The notes under the pieces were generated by a model. That model was not told the origin of the DNA. It searched no databases and saw only the letters and a program-made list of their open reading frames with translations. A stretch of 64,000 nucleotides of DNA from a bacterium (lineage in GTDB: Bacteria > UBA8248). This document shows positions 31,248 through 39,277 of this stretch, one piece after another. Both the position numbers and the translations under genes were made by a program. How positions within the stretch are numbered: the stretch's first letter is position 1; the number at the start of each line of letters is the position of its first letter. The stretch lies in assembly GCA_965202625.1 (NCBI GenBank), contig CBDBBI010000010.1, positions 1,152,001 through 1,216,000 of the forward strand, given 5' to 3'.

Positions 31248-33872
31248 TCACGCTTTCACGGCTTCCGCCTCCATGACCACGGCGAAGGAGAGTGCATCCG
31301 CCCCCTCGGCATGGTCCGCCTCCACAGTTTCTCCCGCCTCGAATTCTCCGGCCAGCAGCTTTTTGCTCAGCGGATTCAGAACGTGCGACTGCATCGCCCT
31401 CTTGAGAGGCCGCGCCCCATAGGCAGGGTCATAGCCGCGCTCGGCGAGGAAGCTCTTTGCTGAATCCGTCAGGCGCAACTCGATCTTTTGCGCTTCGAGG
31501 CGTTTGTCCAGCTCTCGCAACTGGAGGTCCACGATATCCTTGATCTGCTCCTTCGTGAGCGCGTGAAAAACGATGATCTCGTCGATTCGGTTCAAAAACT
31601 CGGGCCGAAAGACTTCGCGAAGCATCGCGGGCGCTTGCTCCGACTGATAGGCCGCCTCCACGCCACCCCCGACAAAGCCGATGTTGGCCTGCGAAAGTTC
31701 AGCGGTTCCCACGTTGCTCGTCATGACGACGACGGTGTTTCTGAAATCCACCGTGCGGCCGTGCCCATCCGTCAGCCGGCCGTCGTCGAGCAACTGCAGG
31801 AGCAGGTTGAACGTCTCAGGATGCGCTTTTTCGATCTCATCGAGAAGAAGCACGGAATAGGGCTTTCTCCGCACGGCTTCGGTCAGCTGCCCGCCCTCGT
31901 CGTAGCCGACATACCCGGGCGGAGCGCCGATGAGCCGGGCCACGGCGTGTTTTTCCATGTATTCGCTCATGTCCACGCGCACCATCGCCGACTCGTCGTC
32001 AAACAGGAATTCGGCGAGCGCGCGAGCGAGCTCCGTCTTTCCCACACCGGTGGGGCCCAAGAAGATGAACGAGCCGATGGGCCGGTTCTCATCCATGACG
32101 CCTGCGCGGGCGCGGCGCACGGCTTCGGCCAGGGCCTCCACCGCTCGATCCTGGCCCACGACGCGCTTGTGAATGTTCTCCTCCATGCGCAGGAGTTTCT
32201 CCCGCTCCGTCTCGAGCAATCTGCTCACGTTGACGCCCGTCCAGCGACTCACGACGGCGGCCACATCGTCCTCGCCGATCTCCTCTTTCAGCATCCGGCC
32301 ATCGGCCCCTCTTTGAAGACTCTCCTCCGCCTCCGCCATCTCCTTTTGGGAGGCTATCATCTCGCCATAGCGCAGTTCCGCCGCCCGACCCAGATCCCCC
32401 TCGCGCTCCGCGCGCTGGGCCTGCGCCTTGATTTCCTCGACGTGCTCCTTGAGTTCGCGCACTCGGGAGATGGCCTTCTTCTCCTCCGCCCATTGGTTGC
32501 GCTGCTCTTTGCTCTGCGCATCCAGCGCGGAGATGCGCTCCCGTATGTGCGCCAGACGCTCCTGGCTGCCCTCCTCCTCCTCTAGGGCGCGCTCCTCAAT
32601 CCGCAGGCGAAGCAGCTCGCGTTCTTGGCGATCGATCTCCTTGGGCAGGCTGTCGAGTTCAAGGCGCCGACCGCTCGCGGCCTCGTCGATCAGGTCGATG
32701 GCCTTGTCCGGCAGATGGCGATCGCTGATGTAGCGATGCGCGAGGGAGGCGGCGGCGACCAGAGCGTTGTCCAGAATGCGGACGCCGTGGTGAATCTCAT
32801 ACCTCTCCTTGAGACCGCGCAAAATGGAGACCGTATCCTCCATGCTGGGCTCATCGACCATGACGGGCTGAAAACGCCGCTCAAGCGCCGCGTCCTTCTC
32901 AATGTGCTTTCGATATTCGTTGATCGTGGTGGCGCCCACGCAATGCAGCTCTCCACGGGCGAGCGCGGGCTTGAGCAGATTGGAGGCGTCGATCGCCCCC
33001 TCGGCAGCTCCGGCGCCCACGACGGTGTGCAGCTCGTCGATGAAGAGGACGATCTCGCCCGACGCCTCGCTCACCTCCTTGAGCACGGCCTTCAATCTGT
33101 CTTCAAACTCGCCTCTGAACTTTGAACCCGCGACGAGAGAGCCGACGTCGAGGCTGAGCAGGCGTTTACCCTTCAAACCCTCCGGCACGTCGCCGTTCAC
33201 GATGCGCTGGGCCAGGCCCTCCACGACGGCGGTCTTGCCCACGCCTGGATCTCCAATGAGCACCGGATTGTTCTTCGATCGCCGGGAGAGCACCTGCATG
33301 ACGCGCCTGATCTCCTCGTCTCGGCCCACTACGGGGTCGAGCTTGCCGGATTGGGCCTGCGCGGTGAGATCGATCGCGAAACGCTCCAGTGCCTGATAAC
33401 GGCTCTCCGCATCCTGATCGGTGACCCTCTGGTTTCCCCGGACATCCTTGAGCGCGGTGAGCACTACCTCTCGGTCGAGGCCGGCGGCGCGCAGGAGTTT
33501 CACGACCTCGGCACCACCCCTATCCAACGCGGCCAGAAACAGGTGCTCCCCGCTCACGTAGGAGTCCGCCATGGCCTTCGCTTCGCTCTGAGCCGCCTGG
33601 AAAAGCGCCGCCAACTCAGGGGTGACGTATGAGGGCGCGCCGTTTCCCGCAACTTTCGGAAGCCGCGCCAAACTCTCCTCAAGGCTTCGATTCAACGCGC
33701 GGGAGTCCACGCTGGCCTTCTCGAGAATGGGCGCCAGCACGCCCTCCGGCTGATCCAGCAGGGATAGAAGCAGGTGCGCGGGCGCGACACCTTGATGCCC
33801 CCTCAAACGCGCCAACTCCTCGGCATGCTGAAGGGCTTCCTGCGTCTTGTGGGTGAAATACTGAAAATTCAT
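31248..33872 (-). CDS. clpB: ATP-dependent chaperone ClpB
   Basis: Two AAA+ modules (GVGKT twice) and a middle coiled coil with AAELRYG. Confidence 0.97.
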
Positions 33873-33982
33873 GAAAATTCGCTCCTCATTCGAAATTTTC
33901 GCTAAATTTCGATAAATTCATCGGCACGAAAAGCCCCATCCATGCCGACTAAGCAGGCGGCCGCGGCCCTTGACGCACATTA

Positions 33983-34011
33983 AATATATTATCTTAGTCT
34001 CTTTTTGTCAA
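33983..34011 (-). promoter_or_regulatory. Sigma70-type promoter of the clpB-dnaK operon
   Basis: TTGACA-17 bp-TATATT on the minus strand, about 110 bp upstream of clpB. Confidence 0.7.
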
Positions 34012-34238
34012 ATTTTATTGCAATAAATTCACGCAATTTTTTATCCACCCTCGAAAATACGCGCACCCTTGGCTCCCAGGCGGGAAAATCAAGGAGCCAT
34101 AAAAAACCACATCGTAAAGCTCAAATGCGACCATCCCTTTGCAAACGGCGCAAACACAGAGTAGTATTATTCATACGCAAGCGCGGCATGCGTAGAATTC
34201 AATCCCCACCACCAAGGTTTTCTGAGGAGAAACGACCG

Positions 34239-34622
34239 ATGTCGGATGGAGCGATTACGCTATTCGATCAATCGCAAAAAAAACCGCAAGCCCTTGAAGA
34301 CGTCATGGTTACCCCGACCGCCAACGAAAAGGTGCGCGAGATTCTGGAGGCGGAAGGAAAAACCGGCCACGGTCTTCGGCTGACCGTCACGGCCGGAGGG
34401 TGCTCCGGATATAACTACGGCCTTTACTTTGAGGAATCCGCCAACCCGGAGGACAAGGTGTTCTCCGCCGATGGGTTCGACGTATTCGTCGACCCTCGGA
34501 GCTATCCCATCATCGCAGGAACAGAAATCGACTTTGTCGATTCCCTGCAAGGCTCGGGCTTCAAGATCAACAACCCCAACGCCATGAGCATGTGCGGCTG
34601 CGGCAAATCGTTCACCACGTGA
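34239..34622 (+). CDS. Fe-S cluster A-type carrier (IscA/ErpA/HesB family)
   Basis: GGCSG...NPNA...CGCGKSF; GAGGAG RBS. Confidence 0.95.
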   Translation: MSDGAITLFDQSQKKPQALEDVMVTPTANEKVREILEAEGKTGHGLRLTVTAGGCSGYNYGLYFEESANPEDKVFSADGFDVFVDPRSYPIIAGTEIDFVDSLQGSGFKINNPNAMSMCGCGKSFTT

Positions 34623-34638
34623 TGAAGCAACCTCGCAG

Positions 34639-34671
34639 AAGCCCCGGTTTTTATGGCCCCGGGGCTTTTTT
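34639..34671 (+). terminator. Rho-independent terminator
   Basis: AAGCCCCGG...CCGGGGCTT followed by a T-tract. Confidence 0.75.
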
Positions 34672-34695
34672 CACGCCAAGACGAAAGAGAGCGTC

Positions 34696-36150
34696 TTGAT
34701 TCAAAACCATCGAGCGTCTGAGTGGAAATCGCCCGGGGCCGTCGTCCTTATCTCCTGTTATGAACAGGGGCGTCAGCCGCTCGCTCTCGCCTCACCCTTG
34801 GCCTTTTTACGCGAGGCGGGCTTTCGGCCCTGGGCGATGGACGTGGCTGCGGAGAAGTTCTCCAAAGCGAAAATCTCGAACGCAAAATTCGTCGGCATCA
34901 GCGTGCCGATGCACACGGCGCTCAGGATCGGCATGGAGGTGGCGGCGAGGATACGCGAGACGAATCCAGAGTGCCACATCTGCTTCTATGGTCTCTACGG
35001 CTTTCTCAACCAGGACTGCCTTCTGGAAAACGGCGCGGATTCGGCCATAGGCGGCGAGTTTGAATGGCCGCTTCTCCAGCTCGTCCAAAGGCTGTCCGAA
35101 TCCTCTCACGCCGGAGAAGCGCCTGGCACCGCTACGAGGGAGCGCGCGTCCGGCCCCTATCTTAAAAAGATTCCCCATCTCAAGCCAGAGCGTGCGGAAC
35201 TGCCGGCACTTCAGGCATACGCTCACCTCATAAGGGGGGGGGAGCATTATCCCGCCGGCGCCGTCGAGGCGAGCCGGGGATGCAAACACCTGTGCCTCCA
35301 TTGCCCCATTCCACCGGTTTACGGAGGTCGTTTCTTCATCGTTCCTCAAGAAAGAGTTTTGGAGGACATTGAAGATTTAGCCGCCCGGGGCGCACGCCAC
35401 GTCAGCTTCGCAGATCCAGACTTCCTCAACGGCCCTACCCATGCGCTTCGCGTCACCCGCGCCTTGCGCGAGAGGTTCCCCTCGCTCACTTTCGACTTCA
35501 CTGCCAAGGTGGCACATCTCATCAAGCACAAGCGGCTCTTGCCGCAATTCCGGGAGCATGGATGCGCGTTCTTCATCACCGCGGTTGAATCCCTGAGCGA
35601 CCGCGTGCTCACTCATCTGGACAAAGGCCACACCCGAGAAGACGTCTTCCGCCTCGTCGAGGCGGCGCGGGAAGCGGACCTCTCGATCAGGCCGTCTTTG
35701 GTCGCGTTCACGCCATGGACGAGTGCCGAAGATTATTTCGATCTGCTGGATTTCATCGAGGAGCGCGCCTTAATTGACGAAGTGGACCCCATTCAAATGG
35801 CCATCAGGCTTCTCGTTCCTCCTGGCTCTCATTTGCTTGACGCCGGCCGCATGGAGAAATACGTCAAAACGCTTGACTCCGAGAATTTCATCTACCGTTG
35901 GGAGCATCCGGACGAGAGGATGGATAGACTGCACGAAGAGGCACTCTCGCTCGCCGAGGGCGCGGCCGCACGCTGCGAGGACACAGCCCGCACCTTTTCG
36001 CGCATTCGCAAATTAGCGGCCGACGTTCTGGAGCGTCCCGACCAGGCCGAGGCGAAGGCCGTATTCGCACCCGATCGGGTGCGGCCGCCTCGCTTGAGCG
36101 AATCCTGGTTTTGTTGAGCGGAGCCCACCCAGGGCCAGTTGGCTCTCTAA
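34696..36150 (+). CDS. CUAEP-tail radical SAM selenoprotein (UGA at 36115-36117 read as Sec)
   Basis: CKHLCLHC radical SAM motif. Read-through gives C-terminus ...LSESWFC-U-AEPTQGQLAL-TAA, matching the CUAEP/CCAEP tail family. SECIS-like hairpin downstream. Confidence 0.9.
36131..36146 (+). promoter_or_regulatory. Putative SECIS element of the radical SAM gene
   Basis: AGGGCC-AGTT-GGCTCT hairpin starting 14 nt after the UGA; GU in the apical loop. Confidence 0.65.
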
Positions 36151-36172
36151 GTCGTCAGGCAAAGCGCGTCGC

Positions 36173-36529
36173 TCATCCCAAAACCCTTGCGTAGGTCTCC
36201 TCGTGGAAGCCGACGAGCAGAACGTCCCGATATTTGAGGACTGGTGCTCTGAGTCCGCCGGAACGACCCAGCAAAAGCGCCAGTGCCTCTTCTCGTTCTC
36301 GCGCAGGCTTTTCTTTCTCAAGGTTCACGTGGAGGACCTTCTTCCCCCTGGTCGAATAGATATCCTTGACGCCATCCAAGAGAAAATCGATCCCCGCTTC
36401 ATCCACCGCGCCTTTTTGAGCGCTCACCCGCTCAGCCGCCTCAATACCCTTCGACGCAAGAAACGCTTGCGTTTTGGCGCAGGTCTTTCAGCCCGACCGG
36501 TGATAGTACCAGTCCACCACTCTCGTCAT
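36173..36529 (-). CDS. ArsC/Spx-like thioredoxin-fold selenoprotein (UxxC; UGA at 36488-36490)
   Basis: AGGAGG RBS then MTRVVDWYYHRSG-U-KTCAKTQAFL..., in frame with the track ORF 36173-36427 (LLGRSGGLRAPVL...LLVGF). Confidence 0.88.
36454..36472 (-). promoter_or_regulatory. Putative SECIS element of the ArsC-like gene
   Basis: ACGCAAG-CGTTT-CTTGCGT perfect 7-bp stem, 15-nt spacer after the UGA, GU in the loop. Confidence 0.7.
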
Positions 36530-36641
36530 GTCCATCCCTCCCTTTGAAAGTGATAAACCCCTCCCACTCAGACAACCACCGCAACGAGAACGATTCGACG
36601 AGACGCCTCCCTTCGATGCAGGCGCGAATCCTCCCTCACGC

Positions 36642-37355
36642 TCAAAGGTTCATCACGGCGGCGGCGCGCACGGGAGAGCCCGTGCCATCCCGAATCTTCA
36701 GGGGGAGTCCCACGTACAGAAATTCTTTTCCCGCCACCGCTTCAATATTCGCCAGGTTTTCCGTGTTGTGTCTCTGGAGTTCACGGCAAAGCACGTGACA
36801 GGGAAACGTCATCCGCTTGGTGTTCACGCCGGCGTCAATGCTGGGCGCATCCTGGCCGACATTCACGACGCCGCATTCTCGGTAGAGGAAGTTCGCGGCG
36901 TCATACCCCAGCCCCGGATAGGCGGTGAGATAATCGTCCGCGGGATAGGTGCGCTTAAAATGCCCGCCCGTGAAAAGAAACGTCCCATCTCTGGGAGGCG
37001 TCAGGCTCGCCGCTGAAAGCGCATCTTCCAAAAGCCGCAACGATACCTCCTCCATCGGCTCTATCTCGCCTGTAAAATCCAGAGCGATCGCCCTGGTGAT
37101 GAACCACTCGAGCGGCGCCTGATCAATGTTGGGCGCCGCTTCGCGCTCATCAATGTGGCTGACCGAATCGGTATGCGTCGGCCCGTGATCGCACATGTGG
37201 AGCATCATCGCCGCATAGGTGATGTCTTTGGGCTTGATCGGCGCATTCGCCGCGTCCTCGTGCCGGGCGACGTACTCAACCTTCGTCGCTGGATGCCCGG
37301 GAAACCTAGGCGCGTCGGTATAAATATCCTGACTCAGATCAATGATCTCATACAT
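36642..37355 (-). CDS. Cyclase family protein (kynurenine formamidase-like)
   Basis: IIDLSQ, HGPTHTD, YPGL, GQDAPSID, ENLAN, PLKIRDGTGSPVRA. Confidence 0.92.
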   Translation of the reverse strand: MYEIIDLSQDIYTDAPRFPGHPATKVEYVARHEDAANAPIKPKDITYAAMMLHMCDHGPTHTDSVSHIDEREAAPNIDQAPLEWFITRAIALDFTGEIEPMEEVSLRLLEDALSAASLTPPRDGTFLFTGGHFKRTYPADDYLTAYPGLGYDAANFLYRECGVVNVGQDAPSIDAGVNTKRMTFPCHVLCRELQRHNTENLANIEAVAGKEFLYVGLPLKIRDGTGSPVRAAAVMNL

Positions 37356-37427
37356 GGCTGTCCCCTCGCGAATGATCCGAAAAGCCTCCCTGTGCACATA
37401 CCGAGGCTTCTTCGTCAAACGAGAAAC

Positions 37428-38672
37428 TCAGGCTACTCCGCCTACCGTAACGCCATTGGACACGGGGCATTCCAGGTCAGGCCACACTTTCGTCATGAAC
37501 GTCTCCAACTCATAAATCACCTCTTCCTTGGGACACTGCGCGTAGTGCCAGATCAAGGTGATGAACTCGGAGGGCACCTTCTCGTAGGTCTCCTCCCATT
37601 CGTGCTTGAGCCTGTCCACGGGCCCTCCCAGGAAAATTCCGCTTTCCTTGATGTTTTGAATCCAGTCGATGCTCTCCGTGTCGTCCGGAAATTGGGGGAA
37701 GAAGGGCACGTAGAAATTCTGGTAGATATCCTGATCGTATTTTTTGAGTTTTTCGTCGTATTCCTCCTCGGTATCCGTCACGTGAATCCACCGGCAGACG
37801 CATTGCCGCTCGCCGTGGGCAAAGTTGTGACCCGCCCTGGCCGCCTCCTCCACGTAGAGATGGGAGAATTCCTCCATCTTTTCGAGTTTCGTGAAATATA
37901 CGGGTCGAAACCCATGTCTCGCCGCGAATTTGATGGAATCCGCGCTCGCGCTCACCGCCTGAAAAACGGGTGGATAGGGCGCCTGATACGGCTTGGGAAC
38001 AACGCTCACCCTTCGCACCCTATTGTCGTCGCCAATCTCGCCGATCGCACCGGCGTCCCGGGCACTTACCCAAGCCGGATAATCTATCCCCTCCTCATAG
38101 GGATAGGGAATCTCATAATAATCTCCCTTCACCTCCACGGAATCTTCCTGCCAGAATTTGAGGAGCATCTCGACGCGCTCCTCGAAGATGTCCCGATTCT
38201 TCACGTCGTCGGCACCGCCCAAATCCGAGGAGACGGTGGCCCGGGTATCGCTGAACTGGCCCAAGACGTTCGACCACCTAGACTGATATCCTCTCGCTAC
38301 GCCACAGAAGAATTTCCCCTTGGTGATATGGTCAAGTATGGCCGTTTCCTCGGCCACTCGGATCGGATCTTGCGTCGCCATCACGTAACCAAGCGCGCCG
38401 ACTCTCGCATTTTTGACTTGCGCGGCCCACCAAGCGTTAAGAACCCCCGGATTCGGCCCCACCTCATACCCCTCCGAGTGCAGGTGGTGCTCAATCGTGC
38501 TGACGCCCCACACCCCCATATCATCGGCCGCCTTCACGATGTCGAGCCATTCATGAAGCACGTGATGATACAGATCCTTATTCCGGGCCAAAGGTCTTTT
38601 TCGTTCGCGCTCCTCTCGACTTTCCGTTGGCAGCATGGGATACAGCTGGACGATCACCTTGGGCTTCGCCAT
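37428..38672 (-). CDS. Luciferase-like (LLM) flavin-dependent oxidoreductase
   Basis: TIEHHLHSEG, DPIRVAEETAILDHITKG, GVARGYQ, PKPYQAPYPP. Confidence 0.92.
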   Translation of the reverse strand: MAKPKVIVQLYPMLPTESREERERKRPLARNKDLYHHVLHEWLDIVKAADDMGVWGVSTIEHHLHSEGYEVGPNPGVLNAWWAAQVKNARVGALGYVMATQDPIRVAEETAILDHITKGKFFCGVARGYQSRWSNVLGQFSDTRATVSSDLGGADDVKNRDIFEERVEMLLKFWQEDSVEVKGDYYEIPYPYEEGIDYPAWVSARDAGAIGEIGDDNRVRRVSVVPKPYQAPYPPVFQAVSASADSIKFAARHGFRPVYFTKLEKMEEFSHLYVEEAARAGHNFAHGERQCVCRWIHVTDTEEEYDEKLKKYDQDIYQNFYVPFFPQFPDDTESIDWIQNIKESGIFLGGPVDRLKHEWEETYEKVPSEFITLIWHYAQCPKEEVIYELETFMTKVWPDLECPVSNGVTVGGVA

Positions 38673-38761
38673 GGTCAGATTCTCCTTCCTCAAAAAGGAT
38701 TCGCTCCTCGCAAGTCTCCGGGCGAACATACCCTCACCCTTTGAACGCTCATGTGCGGCGT

Positions 38762-39277
38762 CTATTTTAGCGAACACATCTTACTTTTCACCTTATGGAG
38801 AAGGGTGGACAGTTTCTCCCTCTCATCGTCCTCCAACTTGTTCATTAGCGCAGCGATGCGCGAATAATAATCGGGGAAAATGGAATGCAGGCTCTCTTTT
38901 CCCTGCAAGGTAAGACGCACGTTCACCTTTCTTCTATCACCTCGGTGGCTGAGGCGCTCGATGAGCCCGTCGCGCTCGAGCCCGTCCATCAACCCCGTCA
39001 TCGTCGCACGGGTAACGCCCGCTTGCGCGGCCAACTCCGATGGACTCAAACCCGAACAGTCGTTTCTCACCTTTGAGCGCAGCAGCAACAACAAAACGAT
39101 AAATCTGCCCTGCGATACGCCATGATCGGCCAGATACGTTTCAAAAGCAGTGAGCATATCGCTACCGACTTGGAGGAAAAGATAAAAAAGCATGACGGAG
39201 GAGGTATCCAAAGAGGAGTATTCCGGCACAAGAGGTCGAAAATCCTCCTCGCTGGGCAACTCTTTCATATAGAACAT
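38762..39277 (-). CDS. MarR family transcriptional regulator
   Basis: SPSELA...GVTRATMTGLMDGLERDGLIER...DRR...LT-QG. Confidence 0.93.
   Translation of the reverse strand: MFYMKELPSEEDFRPLVPEYSSLDTSSVMLFYLFLQVGSDMLTAFETYLADHGVSQGRFIVLLLLLRSKVRNDCSGLSPSELAAQAGVTRATMTGLMDGLERDGLIERLSHRGDRRKVNVRLTLQGKESLHSIFPDYYSRIAALMNKLEDDEREKLSTLLHKVKSKMCSLK

Follow-up and report, generated by a model that had tools for sequence, protein, structure and literature searches.

The 64,000-nucleotide stretch analyzed here (the window; GenBank assembly GCA_965202625.1, contig CBDBBI010000010.1, positions 1,152,001 to 1,216,000, from a bacterium of the UBA8248 lineage) harbors a convergent pair of genes whose stop codons are separated by 22 bp (36151-36172). 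One encodes a radical S-adenosylmethionine (SAM) protein and the other a small protein of the ArsC/Spx fold (hereafter the ArsC-like gene); the coordinates of both genes, their motifs and their surroundings are given in Table 1. An earlier sequence-only reading of this DNA had placed the two genes tail to tail and had proposed that gene callers truncate each of them at an in-frame UGA, and the reading frames bear this out. Under translation table 11, the radical SAM open reading frame (ORF, 34696-36117) closes with ...PRLSESWFC at the TGA in 36115-36117 and encodes 473 aa; when this TGA is read as selenocysteine (Sec, U), the frame extends by U-AEPTQGQLAL to a TAA (36148-36150). The ArsC-like gene opens at an ATG (36529-36527), with a GGGAGG Shine-Dalgarno sequence about 7 nt ahead of it, and encodes MTRVVDWYYHRSG-U-KTCAKTQAFL..., with the in-frame TGA at 36490-36488 and a stop TGA at 36175-36173. 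In the plain ORF list, it appears merely as a GTG-started piece of 84 aa, and the public protein collection for this DNA holds the shortened forms of both proteins, P0003 (473 aa) and P0123 (84 aa). Translation with Sec read-through confirmed the proposed WFC-UGA-AEPT and HRSG-UGA-KTC readings. Comparative analysis indicates that both UGAs are decoded as Sec via a hairpin located 16-18 nt downstream and the SelA, SelB, SelC and SelD machinery of the same genome.

Table 1. Positions in the window of the two selenoprotein genes, their motifs and the flanking features.
Feature	Position	Strand	Remarks
CUAEP-tail radical SAM selenoprotein gene	34696..36150	+	484 codons; TTG start; Sec is codon 474
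CX3CX2C cluster motif CKHLCLHC (C196, C200, C203), radical SAM gene	35281..35304	+	Cys invariant in a 29-sequence alignment
In-frame UGA (Sec474), radical SAM gene	36115..36117	+	Cys at this position in 18/120 best homologues
SECIS-type hairpin AGGGCC-AGUU-GGCUCU, radical SAM gene	36131..36146	+	starts 16 nt past the UGA
ArsC/Spx-fold UxxC selenoprotein gene	36173..36529	-	118 codons; Sec is codon 14
In-frame UGA (Sec14), ArsC-like gene	36488..36490	-	Cys homologues P0130 and P0131
SECIS-type hairpin ACGCAAG-CGUUU-CUUGCGU, ArsC-like gene	36454..36472	-	starts 18 nt past the UGA
A-type Fe-S carrier gene (IscA/ErpA-like)	34239..34622	+	co-directional, 74 nt upstream of the radical SAM gene
Cyclase gene	36642-37418	-	upstream of and co-directional with the ArsC-like gene
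Luciferase-like monooxygenase gene	37428-38777	-	upstream of and co-directional with the ArsC-like gene
MarR gene	38762-39277	-	upstream of and co-directional with the ArsC-like gene
Promoter-like site TTGACT-16-TATAAT	39340-39313	-	precedes the MarR gene
GrpE, DnaJ, DnaK, ClpB heat-shock chaperone cluster	26111-33872	-	directly upstream of, and divergent from, the IscA-like/radical SAM pair

The genome to which the window belongs (3.09 Mb, 99.69% complete) carries tRNA-SeC and encodes SelA (565 bits), SelB (361 bits) and SelD (333 bits), the machinery that was to be looked for according to the sequence-only reading. The SelD gene of this genome (G000:C10:1611050-1612009) itself holds one in-frame TGA and thus corresponds to the selenoprotein form of selenophosphate synthetase. 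Homologues also have Cys at both UGA positions. Of the radical SAM homologues retrieved from the database, the best 120 comprise 100 that end at ...WFC, 18 that read ...WFCCAEP... and two that are otherwise cut. At the DNA level, the tail codon is TGA in 72, TGC in 17 and TGT in six of 95 hits, taken from the window and from fetched loci, some genomes being counted in two locus sets. Similarly, the ArsC-like homologues P0130 (..WYYHRLNCNTC..) and P0131 (..WYYHRTNCVTC..) have a Cys at the U position, giving C-x-T-C. A third one, P0128, has a W at this position, which probably reflects a TGA taken as Trp by the gene caller, and the remaining seven listed homologues begin past the UGA (three of the seven were inspected). 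In the genomes of the window's phylum, exactly one TGA is found in 47 of the 48 radical SAM matches over the cut-off (the 48th is cut by a contig end) and inside the match in all 33 genomes with the ArsC-like gene.

The hairpin with a GU-containing loop that the sequence-only reading had noticed after each UGA turned out to recur among homologues of both genes. In the window, the radical SAM stem pairs positions 36131-36136 with 36141-36146 around an AGUU loop, and the ArsC-like stem pairs 36472-36466 with 36460-36454 on the minus strand around a CGUUU loop. For the radical SAM gene, a stem of at least 5 bp starting 14 to 18 nt past the UGA and closed by a GU-containing loop (AGUU, AGUUG or similar) was detected in 63 of the 66 distinct TGA-form downstream sequences vs only one of the 23 TGC or TGT forms, and the stem exhibits compensatory variants (GGGCC/GGCCC, GGGUC/GACCC, GGGAC/GUCCC and AGAUC/GAUCU). 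The ArsC-like hairpin, which spans +18/19 to +36, is present in each of the 27 distinct sequences (the stem finder detects it in 26, and the minimum-energy fold reveals it in locus L109), either as CGCAAG-CGUUU-CUUGCG or as CGCAGGG-GUU-CCUUGCG, with one compensatory form (CGCGGGA/UCUCGCG). Single-sequence folding of the stretches that follow the UGAs was no better than that of shuffled sequences (z of -1.08 for the radical SAM gene and +0.60 for the ArsC-like gene); the case for the hairpins therefore rests on comparative evidence. An Rfam scan of positions 33800-37000 (E ≤ 1) gave nothing but a chance U3 match (18.7 bits vs 34). Since the machinery, the alternation of Cys and Sec, the covarying selenocysteine insertion sequence (SECIS) hairpin and the single conserved TGA all agree, both UGAs are considered as Sec codons.

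Both genes belong to already catalogued families. The radical SAM protein matches NF040546, the CUAEP/CCAEP-tail radical SAM (seleno)protein family, with 649.4 bits (cut-off 500) over profile positions 1-467 of 468, and still with 642.8 bits on genomic DNA; it also matches Pfam Radical_SAM (52 bits) and bears the C-(U/C)-A-E-P tail (...SESWFC-U-AEPTQGQLAL). The full-length match, the CX3CX2C motif, the ...WFC-U-AEP tail and the SECIS hairpin are those of NF040546, and no defining feature differs. However, a Nfu-type carrier is a common neighbor of the members of this family elsewhere, whereas the carrier encoded upstream of the gene in the window is of the A type (IscA-like). The next-best NCBIfam family is ArsL, the radical SAM enzyme that forms the C-As bond of arsinothricin (NF040542; 293.2 bits, below its cut-off of 450, residues 17-427), so that the affiliation proposed from the sequence, a CUAEP-tail protein related to ArsL, holds. 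Members over the cut-off were found in 48 of the 51 genomes of the window's phylum. In the library searched, the sole relevant mention of this family is the Haft 2022 preprint (10.1101/2022.07.06.499078), where it is an uncharacterised CU-motif selenoprotein.

In the alignment of 29 radical SAM sequences, C21 is invariant, as are the Cys of the cluster motif, and C93, C96 and C290 are nearly invariant. The AlphaFold2 model derived from these sequences has a mean predicted local distance difference test (pLDDT) score of 91; residues 451-470 are well placed and the last 14 residues have a pLDDT of 63-66. The best structural matches retrieved with Foldseek (E of 9e-20 to 1e-9, template modeling score of 0.53-0.68, identity of 14-20%) are AprD4, TsrM, OxsB, MgmA, CysS and TokK, followed by MiaB and RimO; no ArsL structure turned up in the PDB set that was compared. 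The predicted fold is thus like that of AprD4 (6fd2), TsrM (6wte), OxsB (5ul2) and MgmA (9ccb), which have a B12-binding-like N-terminal domain, and like that of the methylthiotransferases MiaB and RimO, but none of these proteins carries the Cys-Sec tail seen here. The Pfam B12-binding match of the radical SAM protein (22 bits) is below the cut-off of 32.1. The CUAEP protein shares with ArsL its overall architecture, a canonical CX3CX2C motif and a C-terminal tail rich in Cys. However, the ArsL tail is RCCLKC (CCxxC, with three As-binding Cys), whereas the tail encoded in the window is WFCUAEP, which provides two chalcogens and is borne by an extra arm of about 50 residues. According to section 6 of a 2026 preprint, ArsL binds As(III) via all three Cys of its CCxxC tail (the truncation data being those of a 2024 preprint) and has just six conserved Cys, to which the CUAEP protein adds the invariant C21 and the nearly invariant C93, C96 and C290.

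With 114.3 bits (cut-off 85; 106.7 bits on genomic DNA), the small protein is a member of NF041106, the ArsC family (seleno)protein, and it matches Pfam ArsC with 31.4 bits (cut-off 24). Its U14-K-T-C17 motif aligns exactly on the CxxC of its best PDB matches, Spx and 3gkx ("ArsC family related protein"), in agreement with the ArsC/Spx fold initially attributed to it. Spx/MgsR and 3gkx belong to the same fold family, and here a Sec replaces their first Cys. The protein remains below the cut-offs of the Spx/MgsR model TIGR01617 (43.3 bits vs 75.05) and of the reductase model NF008107 "ArsC family reductase" (16.2 bits vs 121), and no match to TIGR00014 was obtained at E ≤ 0.01. NF041106, a family without demonstrated function, likewise shows a UxxC motif, one TGA and a SECIS hairpin, and no defining feature differs. 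It appears in a table of a 2026 review (PMC13188914) as "arsenate reductase-like protein, UxxC", and ArsC-homologue selenoproteins, in that case with a UxxS motif, were described from the Sargasso Sea as early as 2005. In the window's phylum, 33 of the 51 genomes carry the ArsC-like family over the cut-off. Two sub-cut-off matches of 32-39 bits, each with one TGA (G005:C2:609960-610262 and G006:C5:615924-616226), may correspond to a more distant Sec-containing paralogue.

The sequence-only reading had suggested surveying the neighborhoods of CUAEP radical SAM genes for ArsC-like genes, and the survey does not support a general link between them. In a set of 80 radical SAM loci from many phyla, with flanks of up to 10 kb, tblastn with the small protein revealed an ArsC-like neighbor in six loci (L016-L020 and L022), in every case convergent with the radical SAM gene and immediately downstream of it. 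With identities of 63-80%, these loci make up all but one of the seven closest relatives, the exception (L021, 65%) being unpaired. A profile hidden Markov model built from 28 ArsC-like sequences (E ≤ 1, six-frame search with TGA read through) retrieved the same six loci and no others. The sequence past the radical SAM gene extends for at least 600 nt in 60 of the 74 negative loci, and for at least 2 kb in 51 of them. Within the phylum (51 genomes), the pair is adjacent and convergent in 27 genomes, which belong to genera g1 (23/23, including the window), g2 (3/4, one of the three being counted from contig-cut fragments) and g3 (1/1). These three genera all fall within one family and represent three of the 13 genera that have a radical SAM match over the cut-off (15 genera in total). 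Both genes are present without being adjacent in G013, G042, G044, G048, G003 and G004, and lie 437 kb apart on one contig in the last of these. Thirteen genomes of the phylum (87-100% complete) encode the radical SAM selenoprotein and gave no ArsC-like match, and in G008 the ArsC-like gene is present and the CUAEP radical SAM gene was not found. In other phyla, two of five genomes carrying the radical SAM gene also have the ArsC-like selenoprotein, and the genes are linked in neither of them, being located on different contigs in one and 1.8 Mb apart in the other.

Gene maps of the window's family reveal two blocks. Block A consists of GrpE/DnaJ/DnaK/ClpB on one strand, followed by the IscA-like and radical SAM genes, and the order DnaK-ClpB-IscA-radical SAM is kept through much of the family. 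Block B includes the MarR, luciferase-like monooxygenase and cyclase genes, transcribed toward the ArsC-like gene when it is present, and then Bax1-I ... M16 peptidase. The two blocks abut in G042-G045, with no ArsC-like gene between them. In G013, the ArsC-like gene remains with block B, and in G048 it remains on the Bax1-I ... M16 side, in neither case with the radical SAM gene. In G042, G044 and G008 (L153, L154, L155 and L150), it is found elsewhere, directly upstream of and co-directional with NmrA-like/DUF2867 (NAD(P)-binding) and photolyase-like genes, a setting that may represent a light or oxidative-stress cluster; in G042 and G044, a DUF4174 gene and an epimerase/DUF1731 gene precede it. 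Its neighbors in two other phyla (a SelA-like protein and an amino-acid permease in one case, a short-chain dehydrogenase/reductase (SDR) and an amidohydrolase in the other) do not recur. SDR genes were seen beside the radical SAM gene (G042-G045), the ATP-grasp gene of the window's genome (described below) and an ArsC-like gene (L165), but were rejected as a common thread since they are unrelated paralogues (29-32% identity).

According to these maps, the convergent pair probably marks the boundary of two blocks co-inherited in three genera and not a conserved module. The explanation that we favor, and that we consider likely, is that of two independent and genuine selenoprotein genes of curated families, lying tail to tail at the junction of conserved blocks. 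Several points weigh against it. The adjacency persists down to about 62-64% identity of the radical SAM proteins (G036, G010 and G012), and some selection for the proximity of the two genes could have acted. Furthermore, in 14 of the 74 negative loci the sequence past the radical SAM gene falls short of 600 nt, so that the immediate downstream position is not judgeable there. The related genomes are also not independent: the 27 genomes with the adjacent pair stand for very few evolutionary events, and the counts within the phylum represent few events in either direction. Lastly, both proteins bear reactive Sec/Cys motifs, and electron exchange between them is possible in principle.

In the favored explanation, the small protein would be a free-standing, general UxxC selenol/thiol-disulfide oxidoreductase of the ArsC/Spx fold, probably expressed from the last gene of the MarR operon and not dedicated to the radical SAM enzyme as a partner. 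The strong promoter-like site ahead of MarR is consistent with a single MarR-monooxygenase-cyclase-redoxin transcript. The radical SAM protein would be related to ArsL and would cleave SAM at one [4Fe-4S] cluster, that of the CX3CX2C motif, and its C-terminal arm of about 50 residues may bring the vicinal Cys473-Sec474 into the active site. By analogy with ArsL, this pair could either hold a soft two-coordinate substrate or serve as a selenenylsulfide/H-atom relay. A vicinal pair would suit a two-coordinate ligand, for example methylarsenite or Hg(II), as in vicinal-Cys proteins, and a selenenylsulfide would recall the tail of thioredoxin reductase. The adjacent A-type or Nfu-type carriers probably supply the clusters of the enzyme, whose extra Cys may hold a second metal site, which would account for these neighbors.

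Around the pair, the product of the IscA-like gene matches Pfam Fe-S_biosyn and TIGR00049 (120 bits vs a cut-off of 58.8). Between this gene and the radical SAM gene, 20 nt ahead of the start of the latter, a GC-rich hairpin (GCCCCGG...CCGGGGC, 34640-34675) followed by TTTTTT looks like an intrinsic terminator; it was not listed by the terminator scanner, its loop exceeding the limit of the scanner. The radical SAM gene may thus have its own promoter or be transcribed by read-through. Two plus-strand ORFs, 36203-36547 (114 aa), which overlies the ArsC-like gene, and 37155-38744 (529 aa), which overlies the cyclase and monooxygenase genes, have no family match and were rejected as antisense shadows.

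The recurrent neighbors of the radical SAM family offer a lead to its function. ORFs located within 4 kb of the radical SAM gene were clustered over 81 loci and the clusters annotated. The commonest neighbor is a Nfu-type or A-type Fe-S carrier gene (31 of the 81 loci), usually co-directional and close (median gap of about 100 nt), as is the IscA-like gene of the window. It is followed by an L-amino-acid-ligase-type ATP-grasp gene (28/81), a DUF169 gene (16/81) and a gene of the iron-trafficking protein YggX (11/81). Of the 48 loci that extend 2 kb or more in both directions, 39 show one or more of these neighbors: 32 have a carrier or YggX, 19 the ATP-grasp ligase and ten DUF169. The arrangements differ (ligase-radical SAM-Nfu, radical SAM-DUF169-ligase or IscA-radical SAM). 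The genome of the window has a single ATP-grasp homologue (47% identity; G000:C10:2436768-2439067, L166 5768-8068), which lies 1.25 Mb from the radical SAM gene and is convergent with an NfuA-like Fe-S carrier gene. The ligase and the radical SAM gene are both nearly universal in the phylum and are jointly missing only from G008 (99% complete); their co-absence therefore carries almost no information. The deep-branching G001-G004 and G007 have two ATP-grasp paralogues, and the one located beside the radical SAM gene is the more distant, which leaves its orthology with the single copy of the window's genome unsettled. Separately, one TGA was seen in the open frame of the ATP-grasp matches of G014, G033, G010, G038 and G002, and a TAG or TAA in that of four further matches; these codons may lie inside the gene or just in the flanking frame.

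A more specific, though rather unlikely, explanation takes in these neighbors. The radical SAM protein could be an ArsL-like 3-amino-3-carboxypropyl transferase or other heteroatom-carbon bond former whose Cys-Sec pair grips a soft two-coordinate substrate, in a pathway with the ATP-grasp ligase, DUF169 and the Fe-S carriers (Nfu/IscA/YggX), the redoxin having been recruited in the window's lineage to keep the tail reduced. If this were true, the ArsL-like reading would put the radical SAM selenoprotein in a widespread and undescribed small-molecule pathway.

Less probable still is a lineage-specific redox pair confined to the three genera, in which the UxxC redoxin would be the dedicated reductant of the Cys473-Sec474 selenenylsulfide, without any involvement of arsenic. 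The redox-type Sec motifs of both proteins argue for it, as does an adjacency that lasts to about 62% identity of the radical SAM proteins though some flanking genes change. However, the radical SAM gene retains its UGA in the 13 genomes that gave no ArsC-like match, the redoxin gene goes with block B or with other partners wherever synteny breaks, and the two genes are convergent.

The selenium-dependent metalloid module proposed in the sequence-only reading fares worse and appears very improbable. In this scenario, the ArsC-like selenoprotein would reduce arsenate and pass As(III) or methylarsenite (MAs(III)) to the radical SAM enzyme, which would receive it on its Cys-Sec tail and form a C-As bond as ArsL does. 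The scenario draws on ArsL, which among characterised proteins is the closest to the radical SAM protein (293 bits) and whose tail binds As(III) according to the preprints cited above, as well as on the Pfam ArsC match of the small protein and the adjacency of the genes in the 27 related genomes. Nevertheless, the adjacency is restricted to three genera of one family and missing from 74 of the 80 loci, the two genes are unlinked in six genomes of the phylum, 13 others encode the radical SAM selenoprotein and gave no ArsC-like match, and convergent genes are not co-transcribed. The arsenic context is also missing. No ars genes occur within about 10 kb of the pair, nor anywhere between the window positions of about 22 kb and 48 kb; whole-genome searches found neither ACR3 nor ArsB (ArsM was not searched for), and the only Pfam ArsC-family gene of the genome is the small selenoprotein gene itself, whose product falls far short of NF008107 (16 bits vs 121) and whose motif aligns with the CxxC of Spx. 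Moreover, the radical SAM protein scores below the ArsL cut-off, lacks the RCCLKC/CCxxC tail and lies outside any ars operon context (with the same limit for ArsM), and the three tail Cys through which ArsL binds As face only two chalcogens in the CUAEP tail.

Finally, that one or both UGAs are true stops, or that the extensions are not made, leaving a 473-aa radical SAM protein and an N-terminally shortened ArsC-like protein of 84 aa, is hardly credible: standard gene calling does yield these forms and single-sequence hairpin energies are unremarkable, but the coding sequence past or ahead of the UGA is conserved, homologues have Cys codons at the same positions, the SECIS hairpin shows covariation and is absent where the codon is Cys, the genome encodes the full Sec machinery and a Shine-Dalgarno sequence precedes the upstream ATG of the small gene.

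Overall, this work corrects two gene calls, from 473 to 484 aa and from 84 to 118 aa, each with a Sec. It also shows that the CUAEP-tail radical SAM family, for which no reaction is known, is accompanied in many phyla by Fe-S carriers, an ATP-grasp ligase and DUF169, and not by arsenic genes. Biochemical testing of this family is thereby steered to these neighbors and away from an arsenate-reductase partner.

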